Source: Oscillospiraceae bacterium
GTDB taxonomy: Bacteria > Bacillota > Clostridia > Oscillospirales > Ruminococcaceae
Assembly (NCBI GenBank): GCA_009786985.1
Contig: WRGW01000112.1
Coordinates: forward strand, 2,330 to 66,329
DNA length: 64,000 nucleotides
Direction: 5' to 3'
Of the stretch, positions 17,665-62,843 are shown one piece after another. The first letter of the stretch is position 1, and each line of letters begins with the position of its first letter. Made by a program: the position numbers and the translations under genes. A model generated the notes under the pieces. The model had not been told where the DNA came from and did not search any database. It worked only from the letters and a program-made list of their open reading frames with translations.

Positions 17665-17717
17665 AATGTTCGGTAACACCGCAGGGCGGAATATTACACA
17701 CCCGAACTTTCCAATAA
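17665..17717 (-). repeat. Cassette repeat copy 1 (minimal, 53 bp)
   Basis: Reverse complement TTATTGGAAAGTTCGGGTGTG...TGCGGTGTTACCGAACATT. Confidence 0.85.
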
Positions 17718-17740
17718 AAAAAATGAGGGATTAAATAAGT

Positions 17741-18895
17741 ATGACTAATATAAACACACGCCCATGTATAGCACCACTTGCTGTAGTAGCTCTTGAAAGT
17801 GCAAGAAACATGGGCAAGAAAATCGATAAGCATTTGATTGAATGGGTGAGCGAACATGGTTCGGCGAACCCAGAAGACGCTCCTAAAACTTTTTTGGTTA
17901 ATTCTGAATGTCCTAGGTTTTCGTCTGGTGATGCTAAAGGTGTGATTCGTAAATCAGTCCGTGGTAATGACCTTTTTCTTATTGTCGACGTAGGTAACTA
18001 TAGCTGTACTTATGAGATGTTTGGTAAGACAAACCAGATGTCTCCCGATGACCATTTTCAAGATTTGAAACGAATGATTCAAGCGTGTGGCGGTAAAGCA
18101 CAACGAGTAAACGTGATTATGCCGATTCTTTACGGCGGAAGACAGCATCGCAGAAACTTCCGTGAATCACTTGATTGTGCGGTCGCTTTGCAAGAACTCC
18201 AAGAAATGGGTGTTGAAAATATTATCACTTTTGACGCACATGACGCACGTGTCTGTAACGCTGTTCCATTGATGGGGTTTGATAACGTAATCCCATCATA
18301 TCAGGTACTAAAAACGCTATTCAAAAGCGTGGATGACCTTAAAATCAATGCTGATACATTTGCAGTAATCAGCCCTGATGAAGGTGCGTTACATCGAAAT
18401 ATGTACTATGCTTCCGTACTCGGAGTAGAACTCGGAATGTTCTATAAACGTCGTGATTATTCAAAGATTATCGATGGACGTAACCCGATTGTCGCACATG
18501 AATACCTCGGAAACTCAGTCGAAGGGAAAGATGTGTTTATCACTGATGATATCATTTCTTCTGGAGAATCTATGCTTGAAGTTGCGAGCGAACTCAAAAA
18601 AAGAAAAGCACGCCGTGTATTTGCATATGCGACATATCCAATTTTTACTGGAGGTCTTAGCGTGTTCGACCAAGCCCACAAAGATGGGTTGATTGACCAC
18701 GTGTTCGGAACTAACTTGACTTATCTTACACCAGAACTTTTAACACGTGACTGGTTTCATGAAGTTGATGTGTCTAAATACATCGCATACCTAATCGCCG
18801 CTTTGAACCATGGTGTTTCAATTAGCAAAGTTATTAACCCGCATGAAAAAGTTGCCGCTCTTTTAGAGCGATATGGCGTTAAGAAACAGGGATAA
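17741..18895 (+). CDS. prs: Ribose-phosphate pyrophosphokinase (clostridial long type)
   Basis: RFSSGDAKG, YGGRQHRR, FDAHD, SPDEG, DDIISSG. Confidence 0.93.
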   Translation: MTNINTRPCIAPLAVVALESARNMGKKIDKHLIEWVSEHGSANPEDAPKTFLVNSECPRFSSGDAKGVIRKSVRGNDLFLIVDVGNYSCTYEMFGKTNQMSPDDHFQDLKRMIQACGGKAQRVNVIMPILYGGRQHRRNFRESLDCAVALQELQEMGVENIITFDAHDARVCNAVPLMGFDNVIPSYQVLKTLFKSVDDLKINADTFAVISPDEGALHRNMYYASVLGVELGMFYKRRDYSKIIDGRNPIVAHEYLGNSVEGKDVFITDDIISSGESMLEVASELKKRKARRVFAYATYPIFTGGLSVFDQAHKDGLIDHVFGTNLTYLTPELLTRDWFHEVDVSKYIAYLIAALNHGVSISKVINPHEKVAALLERYGVKKQG

Positions 18896-18915
18896 AAAGT
18901 AACGGAGGACATATT

Positions 18916-19866
18916 ATGTTTTGTAGTAATTGTGGCAATAAATTAGATGTCGGGGCGACTTTTTGTAAAAGCTGTAGCCACCCATTAGAGCAAGTTTCAC
19001 CTACACCAACAAACGCAGGATTACCAGTCACTGGCGATGATTCTATGTTGACTACTGAGCAATACCAGAAGCAAATGCAAGAAGCGGATAGGGAACGTGA
19101 AATAGCAGCAGCCAGTGCTACTCCAAACACGGCTCACAATCCATACGTGAACCCTTACAATCAAGCACATAACCCATACGCACAATCAAGTGATAATCCT
19201 TTTGAAGAAAGAACATATATTCCGCCAGTTCAGCCTTCTGAGGCTATGGGTATGGCTCAGCAATCACCACCTCCACCGCCACCACATATGGCAGGCTCAC
19301 AATACCCGACTTCTCCACCACCGCCACCGCCTAATCCTTACCTCAACCCTTATTCGAGTAATCCGTTTAGTGAGTTTAATCAAAAGAGCACTGTCCCAGG
19401 AAAAAACTATATCTTAGTTCCAGCGATTTTGATTTTGATTTGGGGTGGGATTTCATTCCTTTCAAACGCATTTGAGTTGGCAATTATAGACACGTGGCTA
19501 AACGACTTTGGAGGCGAATCTGCTCGAAATAGATGGATTATTCACCATGCGAACGAAACAATTTTCGGTGCTGTCGGCATAACGTTCGGGATTTTAGGGT
19601 TGATATATCATAAAAGTATCGAAAAAGGCAAACTGTTGATGAGCTTGGCGTTCGGTTACATTGCTGCGACTGTTGTAAACTATGTGATTTATTTCGCTGT
19701 TGATGTAAGTAGTTTAATCCTTGAAGCGTCGGATTTAGGTGAATTTGCACCACTTGCCTCTGGTATAACACTTGTTTTCTTACCAGCATTACTTGTACTA
19801 CCGATTTTGTATGCTATCGGTGCACATAAAAACAAAAAGCATTATGAAAACACCAAAAATCTATAA
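18916..19866 (+). CDS. Zinc-ribbon, Pro/NPY-rich membrane protein
   Basis: MFCSNCG...FCKSC ribbon, low-complexity linker, about 4 C-terminal TM segments. Confidence 0.75.
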   Translation: MFCSNCGNKLDVGATFCKSCSHPLEQVSPTPTNAGLPVTGDDSMLTTEQYQKQMQEADREREIAAASATPNTAHNPYVNPYNQAHNPYAQSSDNPFEERTYIPPVQPSEAMGMAQQSPPPPPPHMAGSQYPTSPPPPPPNPYLNPYSSNPFSEFNQKSTVPGKNYILVPAILILIWGGISFLSNAFELAIIDTWLNDFGGESARNRWIIHHANETIFGAVGITFGILGLIYHKSIEKGKLLMSLAFGYIAATVVNYVIYFAVDVSSLILEASDLGEFAPLASGITLVFLPALLVLPILYAIGAHKNKKHYENTKNL

Positions 19867-19881
19867 AGCACGAGGAAACTC

Positions 19882-21153
19882 ATGAGTCCATTAGCTGCAC
19901 AAATCCGCCCTAAAAATCTTGATGAGGTTGTCGGTCAGTCACACTTGCTCGGTAAGGGTAGACCTTTGCGTGAAATCATCAGAAATCTTGACATACACGG
20001 AAATGTTCCGTGTATGTTGTTTTACGGTCCGTCTGGAATTGGAAAGACAACAATCGCTAATATCATCGCCGAAAAAGCTAATATGACGCTTCGTCGCCTT
20101 AACGGAACATCATGCTCAACCGCTGATATTAAAGCGGTAATCGCAGACATTGGTGGTTTTTCTAACAGCGAAAATGGAATTTTATTGTATCTTGATGAAA
20201 TCCAGTTTTTGAACAAAAAGCAGCAACAGAACCTGCTTGAATATATTGAGAATGGTGACATAACACTAATCGCTTCAACGACTGAAAATCCATATTTCTA
20301 TGTATACGGTGCGATTTTATCGCGCTGTACTGTATTTGAGTTTAAAGCACTCACTCCAGATGAAACGCTTCCTGCAATCAAGCGTGCGTTTGAATTCACT
20401 GAATGCGAACTGCCATCTGATGAAGCCTTGCAGACAATCGCCCAAGGTTGTGGCGGTGATGTTCGCAAAGCACTCAATGCTGTGGAACTCTGCGTTATGA
20501 TGGCAGAAGGTGAAAGCGAACCAATCACTGTTGAACTCGTCAAACAACTGGTTAGTAAGAGCGGATTTCGCTATGACCGTTCTGGTGATGAACATTTTGA
20601 TACATTGTCGGCATTTCATAAGTCAATGCGTGGTTCGGACGAGAATGCCGCTTTGCATTATTTAGCTAGACTGATTATCGCTGATGACCTGCCATCAATT
20701 TGTAGAAGGCTCTTATGTGTTGCGTGTGAAGATGTAGGATTGGCGTTTCCGAATGCGATTACAATTGTGAAGGCTTGTGTTGATTCGGCAATCCAGCTCG
20801 GATTCCCTGAAGCACGGCTTCCGCTTAGTCAAGCGACTATTCTTTTATGCACTGCACCTAAATCTAACTCGGCATTGATTGCAATTGATACCGCTTTAGC
20901 TGACGTTCGTGCTGGTAGAACGGGCGAATTTCCGCGTACTTTACAAAACGTTCATTGCGATGGGGCGGACATAAGCTCACCTGGTCAAAACTATCTCTAC
21001 CCTCATGATTATCCTATGAATTATGTCGAGCAACAATACTTGCCAGACGTTCTAAAAGACAGAATTTATTACAACTTTGCTGATAACAAGTATGAAAAAA
21101 ACGCACTAAATTATCGTAATACGATACAGAAAGGAAAGCCTCAAAATGGCTAA
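19882..21153 (+). CDS. rarA: Replication-associated recombination protein A (MgsA/RarA)
   Basis: [43 protein letters not shown]. Confidence 0.95.
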
Positions 21154-22591
21154 AAATAATCAAAAATTAGTATCCGAAATTACATCTCGTGATGTGGATT
21201 TTGCTAAATGGTACACCGATATTGTAAAAAAAGCAGAACTAATCGAATATTCAAGTATCAAAGGTTGTTTGGTAATTCGTCCTTATGGTTACGCAATTTG
21301 GGAGAACATTCAAAAATGCCTTGACAAGCGTTTTAAGGAAACTGGTCATGAAAATGTTTATATGCCGATGTTTGTTCCGGAAAGCCTCTTGAATAAAGAA
21401 AAAGACCATGTGGAGGGTTTTGCACCAGAGGTTGCGTGGGTCACTCATGGGGGGAGCGAACCTCTCGCTGAACGTATGTGCGTTCGCCCAACGTCTGAAT
21501 GTCTGTTTTGTGAGCATTACGCCAATGTAATCACCTCGTACAGAGATTTACCGAAACTTTACAACCAATGGTGTTCGGTGGTGAGATGGGAAAAGACTAC
21601 TCGCCCTTTCTTACGTTCGCGAGAGTTCTTGTGGCAAGAGGGACACACCGTCCATGCAACTGCTGAAGAAGCAGTTCAAGAAACCGAAAGAATGCTTGAT
21701 GTCTATGCCGATTTCTGTGCGGAAGACTTAAATATGCCAGTAATCAAAGGCAAAAAGACCGAAAGCGACAAATTCGCTGGTGCAGTTTCGACTTATTGCA
21801 TTGAAGCACTCATGCACGACGGACAGGCTCTCCAAGCAGGGACGAGCCACTATTTCGGCGATGGATTCGCCAAAGCGTTCGACATTACGTTCACTGACAA
21901 AGATAACAAAATCAAACATCCACATCAAACTTCATGGGGAGTTAGCACACGTTTAATCGGTGGAATAATCATGGCTCATGGTGATGATTCAGGATTAGTT
22001 CTCCCGCCAAATGTTGCACCGATTCAAGTTGTAGTAATTCCAGTAGCACAGCACAAAGAAGGTGTTTTAGAGAAAGCAAGCGAACTTTTAGAAAAGCTAA
22101 AAACCGCAGGGTTTAGAGCGAAATTAGACGATTCCGACAACTCTCCAGGTTGGAAATACGCAGAATATGAAATGAAAGGTGTTCCGCTAAGAGTCGAAAT
22201 CGGTCCTAAAGATATCGAAAACAATCAGTGTGTAATAGTACGTCGCGATACTCGTGAAAAAGCGTTTATTCCACTTGATGAGCTTGAGGCTTCTGCAAAT
22301 AGATTGATGAACGAGTTATCAGAAGGCATTTATGACAAGTGCGTAGCGAATATTAAATCAAGAACCTATACTTGCACAACACTTGATGAAATTAGCAATG
22401 TCATAGCCGAAAAAGGAGATGGATTTGTAAAAGCAATGTGGTGTGGCGATGAATCGTGTGAAGAATCCGTTAAAGAAAAAACCAGCGTAGGGAGTCGTTG
22501 TATTCCTTTTGAGCAAGAAAATATTTCTGATAAGTGCATATGTTGCGACAAGCCAGCTAAGTTTATGGTTTATTGGGGAAAGGCGTATTAA
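21146..22591 (+). CDS. proS: Proline--tRNA ligase (archaeal/eukaryote-like type)
   Basis: [39 protein letters not shown]-terminal GKAY. Confidence 0.97.
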
Positions 22592-22609
22592 GGGGATTTT
22601 GAATAAAGA

Positions 22610-22643
22610 TAAGAGCAGGTCTTTAGTTTTAGACCTGCTCTTA
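22610..22643. terminator. 13-bp inverted repeat after proS
   Basis: TAAGAGCAGGTCT / AGACCTGCTCTTA between convergent genes. Confidence 0.6.
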
Positions 22644-22711
22644 ATCAGTTTAATAATACTTGAGTATTATTAAATATATCAATACATATCTACTAAGTCG
22701 ACGTTGTTTTT

Positions 22712-22756
22712 TTAGTATATCAGAATCAATAAGCTATAAAGCTCATAAACAGTCAT
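22712..22756 (-). CDS. Candidate 14-aa hydrophobic small ORF (possible truncated type I toxin-like peptide)
   Basis: AAGAGGTGGTGAAA-ATG then MTVYELYSLLILIY*. Confidence 0.3.
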   Translation of the reverse strand: MTVYELYSLLILIY

Positions 22757-22772
22757 TTTCACCACCTCTTTG

Positions 22773-22943
22773 TTAATCTTTATCTTTTTCAAGATTGTCA
22801 ACGGCGTAATTCAAGCACTGAATTACAAGTTGGTTAAGAGATAGTTTATTCCGTGCCGCTAACACGCTTAATCTTTCGGTCAATTCAATTGGCAATCTAA
22901 ATGTCTTACTTTCACTGTCATATCCACTTTGTATTTTAAACAT
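22773..22943 (-). CDS. Ribbon-helix-helix protein (HicB/Arc-like)
   Basis: SKTFRLPIELTERLSVLAARNKLSLNQLVIQCL; AAGGAG RBS. Confidence 0.75.
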   Translation of the reverse strand: MFKIQSGYDSESKTFRLPIELTERLSVLAARNKLSLNQLVIQCLNYAVDNLEKDKD

Positions 22944-23086
22944 AATAACACGCTCCTTTTGTACCATTATGCACTATATTTATGTGTTTGTATAGACTTA
23001 TTATTCAATATAAAATGCTTGCAAAAATATTGCTAATGTGTTATACTAATTATTATACAACTAAGCTCGACAACGGTTGCGAGCCT

Positions 23087-23725
23087 TCAAGCACCAAGAA
23101 TAATATGTGTATAAGATTCTGGAACGTATCCGATAATTACCGTTTGTGCGACGATGAACTGTGTTTCTATGTTAATCGATGTGGTGTAACCTGGAACAAT
23201 CGCAGCAATGTCCGTCGAAACGCTTAATACGATTTGATGGAGCGTTTGATTAATCCCACTTTCGGAAAATTTACTGATTAAATCAATTGTTGCCGAACCA
23301 CGTGGCATTAGCCTAACTGGAATGGCTACTCCACGCCCATATAAAAGATTAAATCCCGAAATCGTCCCGATTGGGATTTTCAGGGTGCTGTCTTCAATAG
23401 TGCTAAGTTCAGCGTTTATGAGTTCAGCTATTCGTGCTTTTAGGCGATTGATGCTCGCCATATCGCTCTCAATTGAAACGACATTGCCGTTATTATCACG
23501 TGTGAGAGTTATGAGAGAACTGTACGCCGCTCGCTCTAACTCTTCGCTAACGGCATTGTTGATTAGCCTTACCGCAATCATCTGACACTGAAATTCCCCA
23601 GCGGCACGAATCATCGGGCGAACTCGTATATCGATTGCAATTAGGGCGATTATTACGATAATTCCTATTATAATCAGCCGAATGCCGATTTTTCTAACTT
23701 TCAGATTTTTTCGTTTTATAAGCAT
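23087..23725 (-). CDS. yunB: Sporulation protein YunB family
   Basis: N-terminal TM, KIPIG, G..IPVRL.P.G, FSESGINQTLH, IG.VPE.Y pattern. Confidence 0.85.
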   Translation of the reverse strand: MLIKRKNLKVRKIGIRLIIIGIIVIIALIAIDIRVRPMIRAAGEFQCQMIAVRLINNAVSEELERAAYSSLITLTRDNNGNVVSIESDMASINRLKARIAELINAELSTIEDSTLKIPIGTISGFNLLYGRGVAIPVRLMPRGSATIDLISKFSESGINQTLHQIVLSVSTDIAAIVPGYTTSINIETQFIVAQTVIIGYVPESYTHIILGA

Positions 23726-23871
23726 AGGTTTATTCGCCTTTCATTTTTAGAAACGCCCTTGTTTAGCTGTTCTTCGGCAGACATAAAAAGCCCGGCAAAG
23801 CCGACCTTTGTTATGCCCTTGTTTAGCTTACTATATGAATATGCCAAATAAAAAGTGAGTAGGACAAGGTC

Positions 23872-23900
23872 TTGACTTTTTTGTGAAAGTATGATATAAT
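23872..23900 (+). promoter_or_regulatory. SigA-type promoter of trpEG
   Basis: TTGACT-17 nt-TATAAT with TG extension. Confidence 0.7.
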
Positions 23901-23904
23901 AGTC

Positions 23905-24041
23905 AAACAAGAGCGGAGGTGTCAGTGGCTGAGCCAATGAGCAGTCCGCTTGACGACAAGCCAAACAAGAACTCAAGGTCGACTGAACACAAGCTCGATG
24001 AAGCCTGCGCGCGGTGTTAAGACTTTGTTGGTGGGGTAATA
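23905..24041 (+). repeat. Mosaic of repeat modules forming the trpE leader
   Basis: 23920-23945 is the inverted CTGCTC-NNN-GGC-NNN-GCC-NNN-GACAC hairpin; tail TAAGACTTTGTTGGTGGGGTAATA matches 10699-10722. Confidence 0.7.
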
Positions 24042-24078
24042 CAAACTACAAGCTATGAGAGGAATTTAACTTAATACA

Positions 24079-28410: not shown

Positions 28411-28554
28411 CCCGCAATTCTCGTTTTGATAAACATCGTGTAGTAATTTGCACGATGTTTTCTACATACTTATGTCTTAACAGCATAAAATGTTCATAAA
28501 AAAACACTTAATTATAATCTTAACATATAGTATAGAATGAAAGGTCGAAATAAA

Positions 28555-30264
28555 ATGGAAAAAATAAAAGAAATCTTCGGAAATTGTAAAGAAACCTTTT
28601 CAAAATTACCCAAAAACACCAAAATCATCGCAATCGGTGGTTCGGGAGTTTTGGTGCTTGCACTAATTGGTGCGGTTGTAGTTGCCACTGGTGATAGCAC
28701 AGGTGGTAATTCTCCAGTTTTTATAACTACTGACGCAGAGAATGTCGAAGACTCACGTGACCAACGTGAAACTGACCCACCTGATGTAGTAGTTTCAGAG
28801 TATCAAGTTCTACTATGCGGAACAGTAATAAATGTTTTGACTGGTGAGGAAGTCGCTTTAGAAGATGTCACCTGCCCCGACACAAGAAGACAAGCAGAAT
28901 CAGTGATTGCTGCATTACTTACTGAAAGCGACATCGATGAAACCACTGCTGAAACCACACTTGCTACAACAGTTACGACTACTGTAGCTACATCACCAGT
29001 TGCGACAACGCCTGGAGAAACTACTCCTGCTACGACTACCGTGGCAACCACTACTGGTACAACTGCTCCTCGTAACTACACTAACGTGATTACACTTAGA
29101 GGTGGCGAAAGACCAACTGCTGATGCGTCTAATGATTGTGTGCGTGTCGATAGCATAGACAACGGTGCGTGGCGTATTTCGATTAGACGACCAGGGCGCT
29201 ATACAATTAATGGCACGATGAATAACGGCATAGTAGTTGTCGGGCGTAATGATGGTTTCCCAGGTGGTGAGGTACATCTCACTCTAAACAACGTTAATAT
29301 CACGAATAACGCAGGTCCTGCGATTCGTGCAACGAGCAGAGTGGGTTCTCTTATAGTCTACAGCCCTGCTGGAACGACTAACAATCTAACTGATACACGT
29401 GCACCAAGGCTTACTGACGAAGAACTCGAAGAAACAAACGCAAATGAAGATACGCTTGCAGATAATAATAACCGTAATGCCGCTTTGTTTACATCTGAAA
29501 CCCCGTTGACTGTAACTGGTAGTGGAACGCTGAATCTTCGTGGGGGACACGCACACGGTATTCACGCACGCGGAACGACTCTTACCGTTTCAAATACAAA
29601 TCTAAACGTTCAGTCGGCACACGCTAACGGGCTTCGTTCGCGTCACGCTATGGTAATTGATAACTCTCGACTTAATCTAAATGTAAATAGAAAAGGTTTA
29701 CGTGTGGCGGGTGCACAACATGGCAACCTCACAATTCGTAACGGCTCTATACTTAACATAACATCTCGTAGCGATGCTGTTCATGCTGAAGTTAATGTTA
29801 ATATTCTTGGTAATAGTAATATAACCGCAACAGTTGGCGGTGGCTTTGGGAGAGGTAACAACGTCCCTGCAGATATCGGAAGTAGACGTGGTATTCGTGC
29901 GACAGGGAATATCGTTATTACTGGCGGAACTTTTGTTCTTGACGTAGCTGAAGACGGCATTAACGCTTCTGGAAGTACTACGGTTAATAACGCAACTTTG
30001 AGAATTGCAGCACATAATCGCGGAATACGCGGTCAATCTGGTTTAACTCTCAACAACACCACTACAACGATTGCTTATTCAAGATTGGCGTTTCATGGTG
30101 GTGGTGTGCGTGGCTCACACGTTACAATCAATGGTGGAAGAACTACTGCTCATTTCTTAGAAACCGTAAACAACATGAATCTTCCACGATTCACTCACCC
30201 AGATAATGTTAATTTTAGCAGATGTCAAGGAAGAAATTGTAACGTATCACACAACGTGAGTTAA
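28555..30264 (+). CDS. Membrane-anchored carbohydrate-binding beta-helix protein (Cthe_2159/DUF4353-like)
   Basis: N-terminal TM, Thr-rich linker, ITISxxGxY-like and V.L.LNNVNITN motifs, GSGTL, DAVH, EDGINA; gene context VTC-DUF4956. Confidence 0.75.
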   Translation: MEKIKEIFGNCKETFSKLPKNTKIIAIGGSGVLVLALIGAVVVATGDSTGGNSPVFITTDAENVEDSRDQRETDPPDVVVSEYQVLLCGTVINVLTGEEVALEDVTCPDTRRQAESVIAALLTESDIDETTAETTLATTVTTTVATSPVATTPGETTPATTTVATTTGTTAPRNYTNVITLRGGERPTADASNDCVRVDSIDNGAWRISIRRPGRYTINGTMNNGIVVVGRNDGFPGGEVHLTLNNVNITNNAGPAIRATSRVGSLIVYSPAGTTNNLTDTRAPRLTDEELEETNANEDTLADNNNRNAALFTSETPLTVTGSGTLNLRGGHAHGIHARGTTLTVSNTNLNVQSAHANGLRSRHAMVIDNSRLNLNVNRKGLRVAGAQHGNLTIRNGSILNITSRSDAVHAEVNVNILGNSNITATVGGGFGRGNNVPADIGSRRGIRATGNIVITGGTFVLDVAEDGINASGSTTVNNATLRIAAHNRGIRGQSGLTLNNTTTTIAYSRLAFHGGGVRGSHVTINGGRTTAHFLETVNNMNLPRFTHPDNVNFSRCQGRNCNVSHNVS

Positions 30265-30268: not shown

Positions 30269-30318
30269 AATGTTCGGTAACACCGCAGAGCATCGGGGTA
30301 TCACACCCGAACTTTCAA
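30269..30318 (-). repeat. Cassette repeat copy 2 (minimal)
   Basis: AATGTTCGGTAACACCGCAG...CACACCCGAACTTTCAA. Confidence 0.85.
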
Positions 30319-30356
30319 AAAACTCACCTGTCATTTTCAGACAGGTGAGTTTTTTT
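30317..30356. terminator. Bidirectional intrinsic terminator
   Basis: AAAAAACTCACCTGTC / GACAGGTGAGTTTTTT between convergent genes. Confidence 0.85.
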
Positions 30357-50460: not shown

Positions 50461-50489
50461 TTGACAAATCGTTTGAAATAGTTTATAAT
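50461..50489 (+). promoter_or_regulatory. SigA-type promoter of the rpmH operon
   Basis: TTGACA-17 nt-TATAAT. Confidence 0.85.
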
Positions 50490-50505: not shown

Positions 50506-50726
50506 TTATTGAAAGTTCGGGCGTAATATCCTGGCGAGTTTGGGTGTAATACCCCCGACGCTTTGCGTTGATTATCTCGGGCGAAGTGAGAGAGGTGCAT
50601 GGCGAGTCTGTCAAGCAGGCAAGACTTCAAGTTGCCTGCTCGTTGGCAGAGCCAACGACACTTCAACTCTCGCGCTTTGCAAAGCCTGCTCTTCGAGAGC
50701 TTTGCCATGCGGTGTTACCGAACATT
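50506..50726 (+). repeat. Cassette repeat copy 3 (longest, 221 bp, nested modules)
   Basis: TTATTGAAAGTTCGGG ... TGCGGTGTTACCGAACATT with a second left end at 50536 and an inserted hairpin module at about 50622-50680. Confidence 0.9.
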
Positions 50727-54498: not shown

Positions 54499-54507
54499 GT
54501 GAAAGCT

Positions 54508-55023
54508 ATGCCTAAACATTCAACAGTGTTCGGTAACATCGCATGGCAAAGCTCTCAAAGAGCAGGTTTTGCTTGCCTGACAGAGTCACACCTGTCGCTC
54601 TCCCGCTTCGTGCGTGAGAACCGCCCTAAAAGGCGTGGTATTCCCCCCGAACTTTTAATAGAACCAGAAAAATCAAGCCCATGTGAAATAATAGAAAAGA
54701 AATCGCGTTTTATAGGATTTGCAAAGCGAGTAGCCACCGAAGAAGAGGCAAAGGCGTTCATTGAAAAAGTGCGTTTGGAGCATCGAAAATCTCGCCATAT
54801 TGCATTTGCTTATGTGCTTTCTAATACCGCTAAAACAAATGATGATGGTGAACCTAAAGGGACTGCGGGTCTTCCGATTTATAACACAATCATTCGGCGT
54901 GAATTACAGAATGTCGTGGTAGTAGTCGTGCGATATTTTGGTGGGATTTTGCTCGGAAAAGGTGGCTTGATTCGTGCGTATGGCAGGGCGGCAGGTTTGG
55001 CACTTGAGCATTTGAGAGATTAA
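54508..55023 (+). CDS. yigZ: YigZ/IMPACT family protein with repeat-derived N-terminal insertion
   Basis: EKKSRFIG, DDGEPKGTAG, VVVVRYFGGILLGKGGLIRAY; AGGTGA RBS before ATG 54508. Confidence 0.88.
   Translation: MPKHSTVFGNIAWQSSQRAGFACLTESHLSLSRFVRENRPKRRGIPPELLIEPEKSSPCEIIEKKSRFIGFAKRVATEEEAKAFIEKVRLEHRKSRHIAFAYVLSNTAKTNDDGEPKGTAGLPIYNTIIRRELQNVVVVVVRYFGGILLGKGGLIRAYGRAAGLALEHLRD
54525..54660 (-). repeat. Cassette repeat copy 4, in frame inside yigZ
   Basis: Reverse complement TATTAAAAGTTCGGGG...GACTCTGTCAGGCAAGCAAAACCTGCTCTTTGAGAGCTTTGCCATGCGATGTTACCGAACACT aligns to copy 3. Confidence 0.9.
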
Positions 55024-55111: not shown

Positions 55112-55205
55112 TTGACATTTACAAAAAGATATGATATAATAGCAAAGCAAGAGTGGAGCTATGCTTCGGCTTTTGCTTGACGAGTCTTAAAATTTATGAT
55201 ATAAT
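55112..55205 (+). promoter_or_regulatory. Tandem SigA-type promoters for tRNA-Gly
   Basis: TTGACA-17-TATAAT (55112-55140) and TTGACG-17-TATAAT (55177-55205). Confidence 0.75.
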
Positions 55206-55400: not shown

Positions 55401-55500
55401 GACTATAGCAGTTTAGTTGCTCTTATAGTCAATCAGTTTAATAATACTCGAGTATGGATTGTACTGTTAAAAGTAGACACAAAATAACACCTCAATTTAA

Positions 55501-55853: not shown

Positions 55854-55895
55854 AGAAGCTGTGTTCATAGGGCTAAGCCTATGAACACAGCTTCT
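55854..55895. terminator. 18-bp perfect inverted repeat downstream of sigK
   Basis: AGAAGCTGTGTTCATAGG / CCTATGAACACAGCTTCT. Confidence 0.6.
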
Positions 55896-55943
55896 TACTA
55901 CTTTTTGAGGGATTATATGTCAACTATTAACAGTGCAATCCAT

Positions 55944-56657: not shown

Positions 56658-56703
56658 AATTACACCATACCTTTTCTTGATTTGCTCAAAAATTTATAGA
56701 AAT

Positions 56704-56835
56704 TTATTGAAAGTTCGGGTATATAGCAGTTTGACCTGCGGTGTTATAACCGTTGTTTCTGTTGTCTGTTATCAGCAGACGAGAAACAGGTACTTTTCGA
56801 GCAATACTATGCCGAACTTTAAGGGTATTTCTAAA
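56704..56835 (+). repeat. Cassette repeat copy 5 with embedded TGTTTC-GTCTG hairpin module
   Basis: TTATTGAAAGTTCGGGT...TGCGGTGTTA, then 56753-56803 module, then CCGAACTTTAAGGGTATTT. Confidence 0.8.
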
Positions 56836-57023
56836 GTATATGCGGTGTAAGTTTGTCTTGTTACAAGGGTATGTTGAATAATTGCTTGTTGTTTGATTAC
56901 GTTCCAGAAATTTTCGTGCAAACTTTGTGTTTTAGAGAGTATTTTTTAGTTATACTTAAACAGCCTTTAAGCAAAAATTATTTTGCGAAAACGCTTGTAT
57001 TTTGCTGTAAAATCTGCTATAAT

Positions 57024-57475
57024 TATGAGGATATAATTTATGATTTACCGGCAAACGCAAAAATACAACCAAAACAAGGCGACTTGCTCGTTTCAAAAGT
57101 AAGACCATATAGAGGTGCTGTTACGGTAATTAGTGAAAACATAACCGATTTAGTCGTTAGTGGTGCGTTTACTGTGCTACGTTCAAAGAATGATTATCCC
57201 GTTGAGGTGTTAGCTGTCATTTTTCGTTCAAACATTTATCGGATTGGTTTATGAAATGGAATGTCGGTAGTTCATACCCTGTTATTCGTGATGATGATGT
57301 ACTGAATATACCTATCCCGATTCTTGATAAGAAAACTCAACAACAAATCGCCGATTTAGTCCAAAGTTCGTTTGCTTTACGGCGTGAGTCGGAGCGGTTG
57401 CTTGAAACGGCAAAACGGGCGGTTGAGGTTGCGATTGAGGTGGGAGAAGAAAAAGCGATTAATGTTTTAAGTTAA
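57024..57475 (+). pseudogene. 3' fragment of a Type I restriction specificity subunit (HsdS-like), frameshifted
   Basis: DLPANAKI..GDLLVSKVRPYRG, SGAFTVLR; frameshift near 57243; then KWNVGSSYPVI, IPIPIL....QQQIADLV; no 5' part. Confidence 0.75.
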
Positions 57476-57506
57476 GCTACTATACCGAACATTTCAGGGT
57501 ATTTTT

Positions 57507-57561
57507 AAAACACATAACTATAGGGAGTGGCAAATCGCCACTCCCTATAGTTATGTGTTTT
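57507..57561. terminator. 25-bp perfect hairpin between convergent genes
   Basis: AAAACACATAACTATAGGGAGTGGC-AAATC-GCCACTCCCTATAGTTATGTGTTTT. Confidence 0.7.
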
Positions 57562-57571
57562 TGTTGACGAC

Positions 57572-58312
57572 TTAAACGATTTTAGCAATTAGCTGGATTG
57601 TATTGTAATACTTTCCACCTTCTGCTTTCATCATGTCTAAATCCCATTTATGCTCTTCGTTGTTTGGGTCGCGACTGTTAAGATACTCTTCCCAAGCGAT
57701 GTTGTGGCAAGTTTGTTCGCTGATGTTTATGATTTCTACGCCTTTGGCTTTGCTCCACAACTCACGCCACCAGTCAATACCACGGACGTATTTTGCCACT
57801 TCTGGAACGTTCCAGAATGGTTGCATTTCCAGCGGAACGTTTTCTCCAAAATCAGCTTTTAATCCTGGGAACGAAACTGCGATATAACCGCCTTTTTTTA
57901 CATAAGTCGCAATGTTCGTGAGTGAATCTTCATGAATTCCGAACATATTATACGCACCTACTGAAAAGGCAACATCAAAATACCCTTTCGCAAACGGCAT
58001 AGATTGTGTTACGTCAAGCGTCATCGGAATGATTTTGTCTGCAATTCCTATAGTTTTGAAACGCTCGTGATTTTCTGTCGGGTCTGCGTATAAATCAGTA
58101 GCGAAGACATTAGCATCATGTGCTTTAACTAAATACAAAGCCGATAAACCAGTGCCACACCCTAAATCGAGTATTTTTGTATTCCCCGTAATTTCCAGGT
58201 GCGATGCTAATTCCTCAGACTGTCGTATACCGTTTGGACCCCACATTAGTTCATTTAACAATGCAAGGTTGTTTTCGTCGGCGACGAACTTGTTTGAAAA
58301 TGTGTTACACAT
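57572..58312 (-). CDS. Class I SAM-dependent methyltransferase
   Basis: LMWGPN, ILDLGCGTGLS, FD..FSVGAY, KGGYIAV. Confidence 0.88.
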   Translation of the reverse strand: MCNTFSNKFVADENNLALLNELMWGPNGIRQSEELASHLEITGNTKILDLGCGTGLSALYLVKAHDANVFATDLYADPTENHERFKTIGIADKIIPMTLDVTQSMPFAKGYFDVAFSVGAYNMFGIHEDSLTNIATYVKKGGYIAVSFPGLKADFGENVPLEMQPFWNVPEVAKYVRGIDWWRELWSKAKGVEIINISEQTCHNIAWEEYLNSRDPNNEEHKWDLDMMKAEGGKYYNTIQLIAKIV

Positions 58313-58477
58313 TATTTTTTTCCTCCGTTAAAGTTAAGTTTGCCTTGAAAGGGCTTAAATAACTGTGGGAGGTTTTAACACAAGATTATTTTATGCAAAC
58401 CTCCCGGTTTGCTACTATCTGTGTTTTATTGTTTTTACGCATAAAAATCTCCTTTCCTCTTTATTATACTTTAAGAT

Positions 58478-58611
58478 TCGTCAAGCCGACTGCCGTCAAG
58501 CAAAGCTCGCCGCACCACGGCTCTTGTTTTACCTGCGTCAAACGGCTCAAAACCTGAACCGCCATTTGCCGCTTCGTCAGGCTCCCTGCTCACCGGCAGA
58601 GCCGGTGACAC
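58478..58611. repeat. Mosaic of repeat modules immediately 3' of the tRNA
   Basis: 58586-58611 CTGCTCACCGGCAGAGCCGGTGACAC covaries with 50636-50661; 58478-58529 resembles 27342-27375 and 55143-55183 on the opposite strand. Confidence 0.7.
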
Positions 58612-58616
58612 TTACC

Positions 58617-58690
58617 TGCACCATCAGGGACTCGAACCCCGGACCTACCGGTTATGAGCCGGTAGCTCTAACCAACTGAGCTAATGGTGC
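58617..58690 (-). tRNA. tRNA with CAT anticodon, probably tRNA-Ile2 (lysidine type) rather than Met
   Basis: GCACCAT/ATGGTGC acceptor, ACCGG-CTCATAA-CCGGT arm, GGTTCGAG; C4:G69 and CTCATAA loop resemble Firmicute Ile2. Confidence 0.9.
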
Positions 58691-58700
58691 AATACAAAAG

Positions 58701-58800
58701 TTATTGAAAGTTCGGGTGTAATACCTCCGACGCTCTGCGTCGGTTCTCTCGAGCGAAGCGAGAGGGGTGCAGAGCTTGCCCTGCGGTGTTACCAAACATT
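58701..58800 (+). repeat. Cassette repeat copy 6 (100 bp)
   Basis: TTATTGAAAGTTCGGGTGTAATACC...TGCGGTGTTACCAAACATT. Confidence 0.9.
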
Positions 58801-59027
58801 GTAACATAAAAAACTGAATACGTCAAGCAAAATAAAGCCAAAGCACAGCTTTGTCTTTGTTTTGCTCTTGCTATTATAACACATTTTTTTGAAAATTGCA
58901 AGCAAAATTTTGAATTTTGAAAAAAAAATTAAAAATTTTGCAACCTTTCTATATCGAGAAGCGTTTTATTAGTATTAAGTCACCGACAAAGTCATGGTTT
59001 AATAATTGTACGAAAGGTAAAAAATTC

Positions 59028-60425
59028 ATGAAAAATACTAAAGGTTCTAAAAAAACACTCAAAATTATGGCACTGGCGTTAATTACGATGCTCCTGCTCA
59101 CATTGGTGGCTTGTAATAGCGATGATATAAACCATGTGGTTGAAAACGTTCCTGAACGTGGACGCACTAGTGAAAACGGTGAGGCTGATAATAATTCAGT
59201 GCTTGAAGGGCATTCTGCTGATTACGCACTTGAAGGCGATTCCGTTGATGACATAGTAGATATAGTAGTGGGGGGCGTAGATTTAGGGGAAGTGGGCGAT
59301 GTTGATAGCGATATGAGAATGAGCGACGATGAACATCATTTTGTGGAACCAATCCCTCCTGCTGGTGGCGAAACACAATACCCTGATATAGAGCTTTTGC
59401 CAATCGAACCGGGTCAACTTACAGCTGGTGAGTGGAACGATAACGCTAATTTGGATTTGTGGAACTCTCTTTTCCGCAATGCACCGTGGCGAAATTTCCC
59501 GCAGACGTGGGGGCTTTCGACTGCGAATCGTATTATAGTGAATGTCACAAATGGCGATTCACCAATACGTAATGCGCGTGTCGAGCTTTTTGGTAGCAAT
59601 GATGACCCACTTTGGGTTTCACGCACTGACCATAATGGGAGAGCGTTTGTGTTCGGTGACTCTGACCCACAATCACAAACTGGGGCTTCTCACATAATTG
59701 TGACTATGGGTTCGATTGAAGAGCGTGTGAATGTCGGGAGTTCTGATACTATAACAGTCGATTTAAGTGGTGCAACTTCTCCAACCCGAGCGCTTGATTT
59801 GATGTTTGTAATCGACACCACTGGTTCAATGGGAGATGAATTGCGTTATTTGCAAGCCGAACTTGAAGATGTGATTGATTCTGTTCGTAGCCAAAATTCT
59901 AGCTTGCCGATTAGGCTTTCGATGAACTTCTACCGTGACCACGGTGATGATTATGTAGTTCTCCCTCATTCGTTTACCGAAGATATTCCTGAAGCTATTC
60001 GTATTCTTGGTAGGCAGAGTGCGGCTGGTGGCGGTGACTGGCCTGAAGCTGTAGCCGAAGCACTCGAAAACGCCGTGTTTGAACACGATTGGCACGAAGA
60101 TTCGATAAAGTTGATGTTTTTAGTTCTCGACGCACCAGGTCACGAAAACCCAGAGTCGATTGCAACTATAAACAAAGCCGTGCGTGAAGCAAGCGAAAAA
60201 GGAATACGTATAATCCCTATTCAAGCGAGTGGGAATATGGGTTTGTATGATACAATCACCGAATTTAAAATGCGTGCATTCAGTATTTTGACTGGTGGAA
60301 CTTATACCTTCCTTACCAGTGATTCAGGCATAGGTAATCCACACAACGAACCTACCATCGGTGCATTTCAAGTTGAAATGTTAAATGAAATGTTGGTGCG
60401 GATTATTAACGAATATATTTCATGA
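59028..60425 (+). CDS. Lipoprotein with von Willebrand factor A domain
   Basis: Lipobox LVAC, DLMFVIDTTGSM MIDAS motif, GGGDWPEAV, LDAPGH. Confidence 0.88.
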   Translation: MKNTKGSKKTLKIMALALITMLLLTLVACNSDDINHVVENVPERGRTSENGEADNNSVLEGHSADYALEGDSVDDIVDIVVGGVDLGEVGDVDSDMRMSDDEHHFVEPIPPAGGETQYPDIELLPIEPGQLTAGEWNDNANLDLWNSLFRNAPWRNFPQTWGLSTANRIIVNVTNGDSPIRNARVELFGSNDDPLWVSRTDHNGRAFVFGDSDPQSQTGASHIIVTMGSIEERVNVGSSDTITVDLSGATSPTRALDLMFVIDTTGSMGDELRYLQAELEDVIDSVRSQNSSLPIRLSMNFYRDHGDDYVVLPHSFTEDIPEAIRILGRQSAAGGGDWPEAVAEALENAVFEHDWHEDSIKLMFLVLDAPGHENPESIATINKAVREASEKGIRIIPIQASGNMGLYDTITEFKMRAFSILTGGTYTFLTSDSGIGNPHNEPTIGAFQVEMLNEMLVRIINEYIS

Positions 60426-60440
60426 AATTTGAAGCAAAAC

Positions 60441-60552
60441 AAGAGCGCGTCCTGCAAAGGCGGCTTTGCCGTCTTGAAGGGATTAGCTTGAAGAAGTGCT
60501 TCGTCGAGAGTTCGCCCACTACAGACGAGCAAAGCCCGTATGTAGTGGGCAT
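60441..60552 (+). repeat. Repeat module plus hairpin between convergent genes
   Basis: GAGCGCGTCCTGCAAAGGCGGCTTTGCCGTCTTGAAGGGATTAGCT matches 63908-63954; GCCCACTACA/TGTAGTGGGC hairpin follows. Confidence 0.75.
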
Positions 60553-60565
60553 ACTTTTGTTTTGC

Positions 60566-61942
60566 TTACATCAACTCAAACCTTAATCGCCCGATTCGCC
60601 TGCCCTCCATCGTTAGAACGGTGATTTTAAAAAGTTCACTCACTGTAATTTCACCTGCTTCAGGGATTTTCCCGAAAAGTTCAAATACCCAGCCACCCAC
60701 GGTATTACGTTCTGATTTGATTATGAATTGTGGCGATTTTTCTGATTCATCAGATTTGAAGGCCTTGTCTGCACGGTCGGCGAAAAAACGATTAAAGTCA
60801 ATTATACTAAGTTCGCTCTGAACTTCAAACACACCATCAACGTCTGGCTTAAATTTGATTGGTTGAGTTTCTTCATCTCCCTCATCCCAAATTTCGCCGA
60901 CGAGTTCTTCTAAGATATCCTCAAGTGTGACAATTCCAGCAGTTCCGCCATACTGGTCTAACACGACCGCAAGGTGGGATTTTTGACGCTGCATAAGTTT
61001 GAGTGCCTCGGACAATTTCATCAAAGCGGGGAGTTTTATTATATCGTCTTGAACTAAATCTCTCACTAAATTTGGTGGTTCTGGATTTTCTGAAAGCTCT
61101 ACGTTTTTAGTGGTTTCGGTATTTTCAGAATGAGCCGATTTTTCTGATTGGGTAGATAACAGGCGTTTCATAAACTCCTTATTGCTAATCATACCGACGA
61201 TTTTGTCGAGGCTTTCTTCATATACGGGTAGGCGTGAATAGCCCTCTTTCAAAAAAACGTCACGCACTTTCTCAACCGAATCGTTAATCGAAACGGCGAC
61301 TATATCAACACGTGGAGTTTGGATTTTCTCGACTGTCGTTTCGTCAAATACTAACGCAGAACGCACCAAATCACTCTCGTGTTCTTCTAACACACCCTCG
61401 TCTTCGATTTCGTCGATAATCTGTAATAGTTCTTCTTCAGTAACGCTGACTTGTGCTTCTTCCTTAGCGAAAATTTTTGTCACCCCACGTTGTAGTAAGA
61501 GCATGACGGACGAAATTGGCATAAACAGCCACATCACAAAAGTGAGGACTCCTGCCGCAGTAAGCACAAACCAGTCAGCGTGTTCGCGTGCGAGGGTTTT
61601 AGGCAAAATGTCAGAAAAAATAATCAAAGCCACTGTGAGCACTGCCGATGAAACGGCGACAACAAACCCCTCGTCCCAATCAGCGGTGCGTGCTAAATCA
61701 ATTGCAAGCAAAGTCGCTACTGATGCCACGATAATTGTGAGGACATTTACACCGATTAAAAGGGTAGCAAGCATTCGGTCATAGTTTTCAAGTAGTCTTA
61801 ACACTTTTTTCGCAGAAACAGAACCGTTTTCGGCACGATGTTTAATCCGAATACGGTTAGTTCCTGTTATTGCGGTTTCGCTCGATGCGAAAAATCCAGA
61901 TAATAAAATCAAGATTATAATTACAGCGATTTGCCAAGCCAT
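60566..61942 (-). CDS. HlyC/CorC family (CNNM + CBS) transporter-associated protein
   Basis: SGFFASSETA, TPRVDI, YSRLPVY, DQYGGTAGIVTLEDILEELVGEIWDE. Confidence 0.93.
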   Translation of the reverse strand: MAWQIAVIIILILLSGFFASSETAITGTNRIRIKHRAENGSVSAKKVLRLLENYDRMLATLLIGVNVLTIIVASVATLLAIDLARTADWDEGFVVAVSSAVLTVALIIFSDILPKTLAREHADWFVLTAAGVLTFVMWLFMPISSVMLLLQRGVTKIFAKEEAQVSVTEEELLQIIDEIEDEGVLEEHESDLVRSALVFDETTVEKIQTPRVDIVAVSINDSVEKVRDVFLKEGYSRLPVYEESLDKIVGMISNKEFMKRLLSTQSEKSAHSENTETTKNVELSENPEPPNLVRDLVQDDIIKLPALMKLSEALKLMQRQKSHLAVVLDQYGGTAGIVTLEDILEELVGEIWDEGDEETQPIKFKPDVDGVFEVQSELSIIDFNRFFADRADKAFKSDESEKSPQFIIKSERNTVGGWVFELFGKIPEAGEITVSELFKITVLTMEGRRIGRLRFELM

Positions 61943-62740
61943 TTAGCTTTTACTCCTATCTGATACAATCAGCTTACGAACAGCTTCGACTGCACATTTA
62001 ATCGCACGACTATTGTCTTTACATACACTATCTGGAAGCCCAGCTTTTGAGCGTTCAACATTCCAGAGTGCGGTTAAAACAGCACCTGCACGAACTTCTC
62101 TCACGAGTGCGACTGAAAACAAAGTTGCCGCCTCCATTTCAGAAGCAAGACATCCCGCTTTTAGATACGCATTCCATCTATTATGAAGATGTGGTGCAAT
62201 CGGCATGGTTTCGGGTGCAACTTCGCCATAAAACGAATCTTTGCTCTGAACCACACCCACGTGGTAAGCGTTGCCAGCGTTCGTGGTAGAGCTTTGTTTG
62301 GCAGCCTCGGCTAAAGCTGAAACGACCTCAAAATCAGCCACTGCTGGATAGCAAGATGGTAGATATTCAGCACTCGCCCCATCACCACGAATTGCGGCTG
62401 AAGCTATGACTAAATCTCCGCCATGAACTTTTAGATTGATTCCCCCAGAAGTCCCAACTCTCACAAAAGTATGACAACCACATTTGACTAGCTCTTCAAT
62501 CGCAATCGCAGCTGACGGACCGCCGATTCCTGTCGAAACCACGCTTACAGGAGTTCCATCTAAACTCCCAGTATAAGTCACGTATTCTCGATTAGTTGCT
62601 ATGTGTTTGGGGTCATCTAAGTATTCGGCGATTTTTGAAACTCTCCCAGGGTCTCCCGGTAAAATCACGTATTTACCGACTTGGTTTTTATCAGCAGAAA
62701 TCTGTAGATGATACTGAAAATTCGGGTCTAACAAAGCCAT
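61943..62740 (-). CDS. udp: Uridine phosphorylase
   Basis: LPGDPGRV, STGIGGPSAAIA.EEL, RVGTSGG, SKDSFYG, SEMEAA; likely start ATG 62740. Confidence 0.92.
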   Translation of the reverse strand: MALLDPNFQYHLQISADKNQVGKYVILPGDPGRVSKIAEYLDDPKHIATNREYVTYTGSLDGTPVSVVSTGIGGPSAAIAIEELVKCGCHTFVRVGTSGGINLKVHGGDLVIASAAIRGDGASAEYLPSCYPAVADFEVVSALAEAAKQSSTTNAGNAYHVGVVQSKDSFYGEVAPETMPIAPHLHNRWNAYLKAGCLASEMEAATLFSVALVREVRAGAVLTALWNVERSKAGLPDSVCKDNSRAIKCAVEAVRKLIVSDRSKS

Positions 62741-62766
62741 ATTTTTATTCTCTTTTCTTTTTCGAT

Positions 62767-62843
62767 TTATTGAAAGTTTGGGTGCATAGTCGGCTATATC
62801 AAGCAGGCAAAGCCTGCACATCGAGAGCTTTGTTACCAAACAT
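62767..62843 (+). repeat. Cassette repeat copy 7
   Basis: TTATTGAAAGTTTGGGTG...TCAAGCAGGCAAAGCCTGC..TCGAGAGCTTTGTTACCAAACAT. Confidence 0.88.

Follow-up and report, generated by a model that had tools for sequence, protein, structure and literature searches.

Small non-autonomous mobile elements with a cloverleaf fold, found 3′ of TTTATT in a termite-gut Oscillospiraceae genome

The window, a stretch of 64,000 nucleotides, harbors seven copies of a short repeat, which occurs in ~85 dispersed copies, young to decayed, in the 1.81-Mb Oscillospiraceae metagenome-assembled genome (MAG, termite gut) to which the window belongs. The element is real, mobile, and non-autonomous, and represents a selfish repeat of a broadly familiar kind. 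At a probability of roughly 55%, the copies are small DNA elements that insert site-specifically 3′ of T(T)TATT and are moved as a folded single strand or small circle by an enzyme acting in trans.

Copies in the window and forms of the family

The sequence-only reading of the window had listed seven copies with shared ends. All seven are confirmed at their positions, whereas chance alone would give ~0.05. With ≤3 mismatches allowed, the left end TTATTGAAAGTTCGGGTG is matched seven times in the window (0.06 by chance) and is present in every copy. The right end TGCGGTGTTACCGAACATT is matched only five times (0.04 by chance), because it is degenerate in the copies at 56704 (CCGAACTTT) and 62767 (CCAAACAT), and thus it is shared by five of the seven. 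An element with the ends of the family would read TTTAT followed by TGAAAGTTCGGGTGTAATACC on the left and GGTGTTACCGAACAT on the right. The features of the copies are as follows.

58701-58800, plus strand: canonical copy, 100 nt (111 bits)
58701-58705, plus strand: TTATT target of the canonical copy
58710-58715 and 58719-58725, plus strand: 5′ arm of its outer stem (GTTCGG and TAATACC)
58727-58743, 58744-58766, and 58769-58784, plus strand: its hairpins 1, 2, and 3
58785-58791 and 58792-58797, plus strand: 3′ arm of its outer stem (GGTGTTA and CCAAAC)
58798-58800, plus strand: its right-hand ATT
54525-54661, minus strand: copy of the 137-nt subfamily, in which an M3 module lengthens hairpin 3
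50506-50726, plus strand: 221-nt composite of a partial extra left end, a 137-type body, and a nested M4-family repeat
30269-30321, minus strand: short form, 53 nt (outer stem and loop)
17665-17717, minus strand: short form, 52/53 nt, between the genes for SHMT and ribose-phosphate pyrophosphokinase
56704-56835, plus strand: short form split by an M5-family hairpin (56755-56807)
62767-62843, plus strand: recombinant form, 77 nt, built from the left end, the M3 module, and the degenerate right end

The main form of 99 nt takes on a cloverleaf fold, in which an outer stem is formed by both ends and surrounds three hairpins. The variable cargo of 50-220 bp that had been described does not form a continuum of sizes; the lengths fall into classes of ~53, 99, and ~137 nt with a few composites. 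The ~53-nt subfamily arose through a deletion between CTGCG repeats and the 137-nt subfamily through the one-off capture of another hairpin module. In the rare composites, other, separate repeat families (M4, M5, M3-like) are nested inside the element. The M4-family repeat of the composite at 50506 sits inside the M3 hairpin loop (~50628-50667), and in the copy at 56704 the M5-family hairpin separates GGTGTTA from CCGAAC, with the degenerate right end at ~56815-56823. The copy at 62767 lacks hairpins 1 and 2. What had been proposed as an assembly of hairpin modules is better explained by rare nesting of separate repeat families and by amplification of subfamilies, among them the 137-nt form. 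An M4 insert is also found within rdgB.

Of the seven copies, one at most has entered a coding gene. The copy at 54525-54661 lies in frame between the ATG at 54508 and the YigZ (UPF0029) domain, at the N-terminus of the protein, and the other six are intergenic. The canonical copy is flanked by tRNA-Met (58616-58691, minus strand) and a minus-strand promoter (58826-58798) and is therefore transcribed antisense, in the tRNA leader. The composite lies upstream of rnpA and begins 17 nt past a 12/12 promoter match (50461-50489). The short form at 30269-30321 occupies a T-tract behind a terminator-like hairpin; the genes on its two sides are convergent, and the ORF 28537-30264 has its stop codon 4 nt away. 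The PNP_UDP_1 gene (minus strand) has its real ATG 28 nt downstream of the copy at 62767, which is therefore outside of the coding sequence. In the annotation of the window, the element accounts for several ORFs that had been extended falsely and for seven intergenic stretches that looked “odd.”

Fold, decay, and distribution between genomes

The pairing of the ends that had been read from the window (GTTCGG/CCGAAC and TAATACC/GGTGTTA) is real, and a T·G pair is conserved at alignment columns 26/111. Stem positions are paired in 92.8% of cases, as compared to 37-62% with slid partners, and 12 pairs are changed on both sides. The covariance model (R2) has its structure mapped from the consensus fold and superseded a first model (R1) with a poor RNAalifold structure. 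That the TAATATT variant of the copy at 17665 pairs through G·T on one strand only follows directly from the sequence, as it forms three G·T pairs with GGTGTTA. In the family, three U·G wobbles are conserved, all of them on the same strand. This strand also gives the more stable consensus fold (-46.4 vs -41.3 kcal/mol on the other).

The consensus sequences of two genomes with multiple copies, G000 and G006, show 15 differences, nearly all of which are compensatory in stems or located in loops, and the blocks TTATTGAAAG, GGGTGTAATACCCC, and GGGGTGCAGGGCTTGCCCTGCGGTGTTACC are identical. The fold and the unpaired blocks have been kept in the consensus of sister species, which stands for the inferred master copy, through compensatory changes. 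Individual copies, which carry 1 to 27 differences from the consensus, decay about neutrally, because A·C mismatches are about as frequent as G·U pairs outside of the three fixed wobble pairs (49 vs 68).

Within the genus, five of 108 genomes carry the family; among other members of the order, none of 400 does. Multiple copies are present in four related termite-gut genomes (G000, which has the most copies, G006, G460, and G462). At two loci with three copies in G006, an Oscillospiraceae MAG from termite gut (its contig C4 is WRLX01000004.1), the orthologous place in G000 has no copy. Conversely, G000 has a copy between rplB and rpsS that G003, G006, and G013 lack. None of the insertion sites tested between species is shared. 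The patchy distribution, the non-orthologous sites, and the paralogous empty sites described below show that the family has moved, which agrees with the mobile, non-autonomous nature that had been suggested for it.

Neither a conspecific empty site nor an excision product was obtained from termite-gut runs and metagenome contigs. Three termite-gut runs with the same strain yielded no contigs that skip the element, and metagenome relatives of the neighboring vWA protein share ≤55% identity and carry no copy. An identical S19 protein is encoded on a single further contig, and the element is present there as well. G003 was rejected as a source of base-exact junctions, as its S19 is 96% identical but its DNA only ~70%. 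A conserved rplB-rpsS hairpin of other genus members was considered as a sister family and discarded as unrelated, since it is single-copy per genome. In an exact-pattern scan of contigs with 15 specified bases, matches are nearly all due to chance, and of 27 pattern matches in viral contigs, none was confirmed by the covariance model.

Structured RNAs that function as cis-acting leaders or stabilizers or as small RNA genes, and that are kept by selection on their fold instead of being spread by transposition, would account for the one-sided wobbles, the more stable folding of that strand, and the several copies in transcribed leaders just past promoters. This explanation is highly improbable, however, given the neutral ratio of mismatches in decaying copies and the lack of conserved sites across species. 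Copies are transcribed in either orientation, and antisense, in which the fold is weaker, is the commoner one. Among the sequences split by copies are a promoter cassette, a spacer in an r-protein operon, and an ORF. In Rfam, two tRNAs alone reach the gathering score in the window, and seven loci, including L135 with its copy, give no match at E ≤1. In RNA runs, sharing is seen at the tRNA level only.

Insertion site and the search for a mobilizing enzyme

In two paralogous pairs of empty and filled sites, TTTATT was there before the insertion and the element follows it immediately on the 3′ side. The first empty site reads ...GGC TTTATT TTGCTTGAC (25 intact cassettes), and its filled counterpart (C87:15886-15971) reads ...GGC TTTATT[GAAAG...CCGAACATT]TTGCTTGAC. 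The second filled site (C100:21257-21355) is on the other flank, with the target GTC TTTATT CTGCTC. The TT ahead of ATT is conserved in >90% of the copies and is already present in both empty sites; of 57 copies, 41 have T at position -1. The right-hand ATT is unchanged where the left end is TTTTT, TTACT, TTGTT, or CTATT, and left ends do not track the right-end variants ATC, AAT, and ACT. As the right ATT does not covary with left-end variants, there is no target-site duplication, and the constant TTAT(T) boundary without duplication that had been noted is upheld by flanks and paralogous empty sites alike. A general preference for terminator hairpins was dropped, since the 40 nt upstream of copies are no more structured than those of random TTATT sites (mean folding energy -4.8 vs -4.5 kcal/mol). 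A strong hairpin precedes about one copy in seven.

If the family were a classical DDE-type MITE with ATT as a 3-bp target-site duplication, the element proper would be confined to GAAAGTTCGG...CCGAAC with imperfect inverted repeats. Both filled sites can indeed be written as TT-ATT-[GAAAG...CCGAAC]-ATT, and AA(A/T)GTTCGG forms a near-terminal inverted repeat. The independence of the right ATT from the left-end variants makes this origin improbable, and the conserved, pre-existing TT implies a target longer than the putative duplication. Moreover, the inverted repeats would stop short of the tips, where TTATTG and CATT are not inverted repeats, and G000 contains no repeats of IS size.

The junction keeps a 3-nt ambiguity (ATT), which leaves room for other chemistries. 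A rival explanation is site-specific recombination through a small circle. Strands would be exchanged within the ATT/TTATT common to element and target by a recombinase of the tyrosine, serine, or DEDD (IS110-like) type, which may be a host enzyme. The joined ends CCGAAC-ATT-GAAA-GTTCGG would form a neat hairpin with the crossover triplet in its loop, and the junction would read CCGAACATTGAAAG. The ATT that borders the net insert left and right in each of the two filled sites, the pairing of the ends, the failure to find an HUH enzyme, and the IS110-type genes of G006 speak for this route. It is nevertheless unlikely, as G000, richest in copies, has no match to the IS110 transposase (PF01548) and no circle junction was observed. 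IS110-type elements are not known to leave gene-less derivatives of 50-140 nt in such numbers.

In the preferred reading, that of site-specific insertion by an enzyme in trans, the mobile form of the element would be either a folded single strand or a small circle with a hairpin at its joined ends. The enzyme would cut after TTTAT(T) at the left and after ...CCGAACAT(T) at the right, which would resemble the “peel-and-paste” of IS200/IS605 PATEs. A circle or single-strand junction would then read ...CCGAACAT(T)/(T)GAAAGTTCGG... Inserted copies would be passive passengers in 5′ leaders and operon spacers or next to terminators. Their sites in a tRNA leader, an r-protein operon, and promoter cassettes offer a natural probe of the tolerance of transcripts to strong hairpins.

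The gene for such an enzyme is absent from the window, as had been stated. Y1 transposase/RAYT (PF01797) is absent from G000, G006, G460, and G462 (98%, 86%, 95%, and 96% complete, respectively), with positive controls, and the TnpB TNB domain (PF07282) is absent from G000, G006, G041, and G003. A check for reverse transcriptase genes, which had been named as candidates, found none in the genome of the window, and no gene-bearing unit between matching ends was found. The enzyme census of G000 covers four families in a binned genome. When co-directional genes are used as proxy for replication direction, 34 copies are antisense and 16 sense. This orientation bias is weak and, provided that the strand with TTTAT is the active one, runs counter to the lagging-strand rule that applies to IS608/ISDra2. 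Together with the missing PF01797, it argues against the HUH-type mobilization that had been proposed.

The family is thus probably either orphaned now or served by an unbinned or unrecognized enzyme. Duplication-free, PATE-like insertion at TTTATT thrives in four related termite-gut genomes with no detectable HUH transposase. If binning of MAGs systematically hides the helper element, this is a caution for mobilome surveys; if another enzyme does the job, the known ways of moving hairpin DNA are widened. It is decidedly unlikely that enzymes of a class with no link to transposition so far move the family together with the nested hairpin families M3, M4, and M5 by recognizing folded hairpin DNA and inserting hairpins after TTTATT or into GGC-WWW-GCC loops. 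If true, it would mean self-nesting, “fractal” palindrome growth in a 1.8-Mb genome without Y1, TnpB, IS110, and reverse transcriptase genes.

Comparison with known systems

A literature search for the end sequence gave no match. Integron attC sites were rejected, as these adjoin cassettes and need RYYYAAC (R″) followed by GTTRRRY (R′), whereas the ends here read GTTCGG...CCGAAC on either strand; the outer ends in G006 are GTAAGG...CCTTAC.

Rickettsia palindromic elements (RPE) are hairpin repeats of ~100-150 nt that can be in frame within protein genes. The YigZ copy and the M4 insert in rdgB resemble them, but the family is mostly intergenic, belongs to an unrelated host lineage, and is not similar to them in sequence. 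Pneumococcal BOX elements and enterobacterial BIMEs are modular, intergenic, and co-transcribed with their neighbors, with no known transposase. They share with the family the variable combination of hairpin units. They are unrelated to it in sequence, and the family differs in its defined target and in nesting modules in hairpin loops rather than in tandem. RAYT-mobilized REP/REPIN sequences are similar as abundant intergenic palindromes with a long hairpin, a conserved consensus structure, and a narrow lineage. In contrast to these, the genomes have no RAYT (PF01797), a GTAG-type head is missing, the target is defined, and the 5′ tail (TTATTGAAA) is fixed and asymmetric.

A precedent is given by IS605-family elements of a Firmicute, in which the TTTAT transposon-adjacent motif of ISGst2 and gene-less PATEs have been described (PMC10055086). 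The family departs from PATEs in that host genomes searched have no Y1 TnpA or TnpB, in that its weak orientation bias is contrary to the expected one, and in that it has no sequence similarity to a catalogued RNA or end (no Rfam match). Its ends pair together into a four-way junction, unlike the two similar subterminal hairpins of IS608-type ends. The distance to the left tip is 25 nt for hairpin 1, and that to the right tip is 16 nt for hairpin 3; the two differ in sequence, and there are short forms that lack both. Like the PATEs of ISGst in Geobacillus stearothermophilus, IS608, and ISDra2, however, the family is short, non-coding, and present in many copies that need mobilization in trans, and it has hairpins near both ends. 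It is likewise inserted directly 3′ of a fixed, unduplicated pentanucleotide, with the TTTAT of ISGst2 being nearly the same as TTTAT(T) here.

Repeat family, host and distribution

The repeat family proposed in the sequence-only reading is real. It is mobile and non-autonomous, has a defined target, and its four-way fold is conserved. Its host genome (G000) is a 1.81-Mb assembly of 112 contigs (40.5% G+C, 98% complete), in which the window occupies C112:2330-66329. Since the window DNA recurs nearly letter for letter in three termite-gut metagenome runs, the host is an uncultured termite-gut Oscillospiraceae (Clostridia) bacterium. The seven copies first noticed (17665-17717, 30269-30318, 50506-50726, 54525-54660, 56704-56835, 58701-58800 and 62767-62843) were borne out on reading all of them, four on the plus and three on the minus strand; the right ends of 56704 and 62767 are degenerate. 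At up to three mismatches, the left-end word TTATTGAAAGTTCGGGTG matches the window seven times (0.06 expected), and the right-end word TGCGGTGTTACCGAACATT has five matches (0.04 expected). Genome-wide, 94 left and 79 right ends are found, 61 of them directly paired. A BLAST census with three consensus forms as queries, counting loci of at least 45 nt, yields 91 loci, or about 0.5% of the genome. Besides two tRNAs, an Rfam search of the window matched nothing.

A search with R2, a covariance model with the structure mapped from the consensus fold, detects the main family in 5 of 108 genomes of the genus.

Copies of the main family per genome
G000: at least 66 copies
G006: 25 copies
G460: 28 copies
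G462: 2 copies
G041: a single hybrid copy whose ends are foreign (L133 2488-2577, G041:C151)

The family was found neither in 400 genomes from elsewhere in the order (178 genera, model search) nor in IMG/VR contigs, and the element is restricted to a few termite-gut species. The hybrid copy keeps the family core (GGGTGTAATAC...GGTGTTA), and its right side leads into TATAGTCGATTAAC, which also adjoins two G000 copies (C111:16038 and C90:23328).

Fold, subfamilies and nested repeats

In the fold of the 99-nt consensus, TTATTGAAAGTTCGGGTGTAATACCCCGACGCTCTGCGTCGGTTCTCTCGAGCGAAGCGAGAGGGGTGCAGGGCTTGCCCTGCGGTGTTACCGAACATT, an outer stem encloses three hairpins. In the outer stem, which has a GTG bulge, GTTCGG and TAATACC pair with GGTGTTA and CCGAAC. 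The RNA folding energy is -46.4 kcal/mol on this strand and -41.3 kcal/mol on the opposite one; window copies beat their shuffles on each of the two strands (z-scores -1.8 to -3.8).

Size classes and nested units
About 99 nt: more than 30 copies, the commonest size
136-141 nt: about 14 copies
45-55 nt: about 7 copies
150-260 nt: composites, few copies
50628-50667: M4 unit nested in a main-family copy
56755-56807 and 10841-10893: M5 copies, with four more in G000

The variable content described earlier as modular cargo is present, and consists of several nested small repeat families combined with subfamily amplification. In the 137-nt class, hairpin 3 is lengthened by the M3 module at a position identical across all members, so the class is a subfamily amplified as a unit. 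The 53-nt form is the consensus minus the stretch between two CTGCG words, and a private GATGC variant common to two such copies hints that the short form was itself copied onward. The M4 repeat family (CAAGTTGCCTGCTCGTTGGCAGAGCCAACGACAC) has 22 matches in G000, of which 20 lie outside the main family, often at contig ends; in the 221-nt window copy, an M4 unit sits within the M3 loop of a 137-type body. The M5 hairpin family (GTTTCTGTTGTCTGTTATCAGCAGACGAGAAACAGG) has six matches in G000, some nested in main-family copies at one constant internal point after GGGTGTAATA, and in the 132-nt window copy an M5 hairpin divides a short form.

The R2 alignment comprises 61 full copies, drawn from G000 and G006. 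Standard pairs fill 92.8% of cells, compared with 37-62% once partners are shifted by 1-3 columns, and two-sided changes occur at 12 pairs (79 cells). As the alignment was fitted to R2, these figures are biased towards the structure. Most of the double changes go back to a small number of events that many copies inherited. The double-change events distinguish the species consensuses, taken as inferred master copies: GTTCGG/CCGAAC in G000 corresponds to GTAAGG/CCTTAC in G006, G460 and G462 (GTTAGG/CCTAAC in some copies), and CCGACGC/GCGTCGG to CCGCCCC/GGGGCGG in the same three genomes. The G000 and G006 consensuses differ at 15 positions, nearly all in loops or compensatory, with no difference in the unpaired blocks TTATTGAAAG, GGGTGTAATACCCC and GGGGTGCAGGGCTTGCCCTGCGGTGTTACC. 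The "sense" strand has three fixed U.G wobbles; outside these, single copies carry 49 A.C versus 68 G.U mismatches. Each copy diverges from its own consensus at 1-27 positions. Selection thus acts on the sequence that gets copied, not on each resident copy. A functional RNA family is an alternative reading; the selection pattern marks a mobile element, not a set of about 85 functional RNAs.

Further repeats occur in the window. A 32-nt direct repeat (88% identical; 56805-56836 and 57478-57509, 670 nt apart), made of the element right end plus flank, brackets an ORF fragment without Pfam match (56853-57254) and is followed, after its second unit, by a strong bidirectional terminator-like hairpin (57511-57557). 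At 60433-60515 and 63896-63955 contig depth rises 6- to 14-fold in the source run, and joints connect the two across opposite strands; more short repeat families break the assembly here.

Target site and genomic setting

No empty site was found in a close strain. Filled and empty sites are available in a repeated ~80-nt "promoter cassette" (TTGCTTGAC-N17-TATAAT, then ...CAGAATAAAGACGGAGCTGTGCTTCGGCTTTATT), which has a short hairpin after TATAAT, between AATAAA and TTTATTTT. G000 holds 25 intact cassette hairpin cores, in tandem with up to three consecutive units.

Promoter cassettes in the window
55112-55205 (+): before tRNA-Gly
58798-58901 (-): before tRNA-Met

The filled cassette at C87:15886-15971 reads GGC-TTTATT-[GAAAG...CCGAACATT]-TTGCTTGAC, versus GGC-TTTATT-TTGCTTGAC when empty. 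On the other flank of the same hairpin (C100:21257-21355), GTC-TTTATT-[GAAAG...CCGAACATT]-CTGCTC stands against GTC-TTTATT-CTGCTC. TTTATT is already in both empty sites, and what each filled site gains is the element without its TTATT. T occupies position -1 in 41 of 57 complete copies. The exact junction is ambiguous by 3 nt (ATT). Alternative mechanisms are a DDE MITE with an ATT duplication and recombination within the shared ATT/TTATT core via a small circle. The right-hand ATT stays constant beside the left-end variants TTTTT, TTACT, TTGTT and CTATT, and the reverse likewise, so ATT is part of the element and not a target duplication. Both the cassette pairs and the non-varying right ATT bear out the earlier description of a constant TTAT without target-site duplication.

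Presence/absence polymorphism at orthologous sites is seen both ways and favours mobility, in comparisons between species only. For two G006 loci that together carry three copies, the flanks have clear orthologues in G000 (C101:20.3-22.2 kb and C106:15.9-18.1 kb), and G000 has no copy at either. In the S10 operon, the G000 spacer between rplB and rpsS contains a copy 3 nt past the rplB stop; the spacers of G003, G006 and G013 are short and without a copy. The sequence-only reading had made mobility hinge on such polymorphism, and the copies missing at orthologous sites thus answer that point for mobility.

The rplB-rpsS spacer of most genus genomes contains a conserved, covarying hairpin that is single-copy (TTGTTAATAAG...ATTAACTTGCA, then CTTGAAAGGAAA before the rpsS ATG; loci L140-L159; for example, L160 at G017:C1:2526209-2526269). 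It is absent in G000, G003, G006 and G013, has no Rfam match and could be an undescribed r-protein leader.

Based on rough ORF calls, and taking the element as plus in every case, both neighbouring genes are antisense in 34 cases and both sense in 16; they diverge in 13 and converge in 13. Two window copies sit in leaders just past strong promoters, 50506 behind the one at 50461-50489 and 58701 between tRNA-Met and a minus-strand promoter (58826-58798), and some copies adjoin stop codons and terminator-like hairpins (e.g. 30321). Upstream hairpins are no commoner before copies than before random TTATT sites.

Entry into coding genes had also been suggested; six window copies are intergenic, and the 54525 copy is in frame with YigZ. 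The ORF apparently holding the 62767 copy is an extension artefact, the PNP gene starting at an ATG 28 nt beyond it. The 54525 copy lies between the YigZ domain and ATG 54508, which has a GGTGA ribosome-binding site. There is no later start in frame, and the product is ~45 residues longer than PDB 1VI7 and 2CVE. Either the in-frame insertion is tolerated or the gene is dead, both being possible readings. An M4-like ~42-nt piece is in frame inside rdgB (~594-642), with 13-14 added residues compared with E. coli RdgB (1K7K).

Mobilisation and known systems

PF01797 (Y1 transposases, RAYTs) is absent in G000, G006, G460 and G462, with control genomes positive, and the TnpB domain PF07282 is absent in G000, G006, G041 and G003. 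G000 has no match to IS110 (PF01548) or reverse transcriptase (PF00078), and neither IS-size repeats nor a gene-bearing unit between matching element ends were found there. Multicopy IS elements are often lost in MAG binning, so a helper on unbinned DNA is possible. The orientation bias is weak and opposite in direction to the lagging-strand rule.

IS200/IS605 "peel-and-paste" elements and their gene-less derivatives (PATEs) have a fixed left pentanucleotide, make no duplication and carry hairpins, and the gene-less copies are mobilised in trans. The main family is alike in its fixed left motif, lack of duplication, hairpins and gene-less copies. IS200/IS605 elements carry two like end hairpins, whereas the main-family ends pair with each other. 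In Geobacillus ISGst2, the adjacent motif is TTTAT (PMC10055086). PATE-type movement is the best available model, but tested points tell against membership. The element has no recognisable mobilising enzyme and resembles the small structured repeats of the PATE, REPIN and BOX kind.
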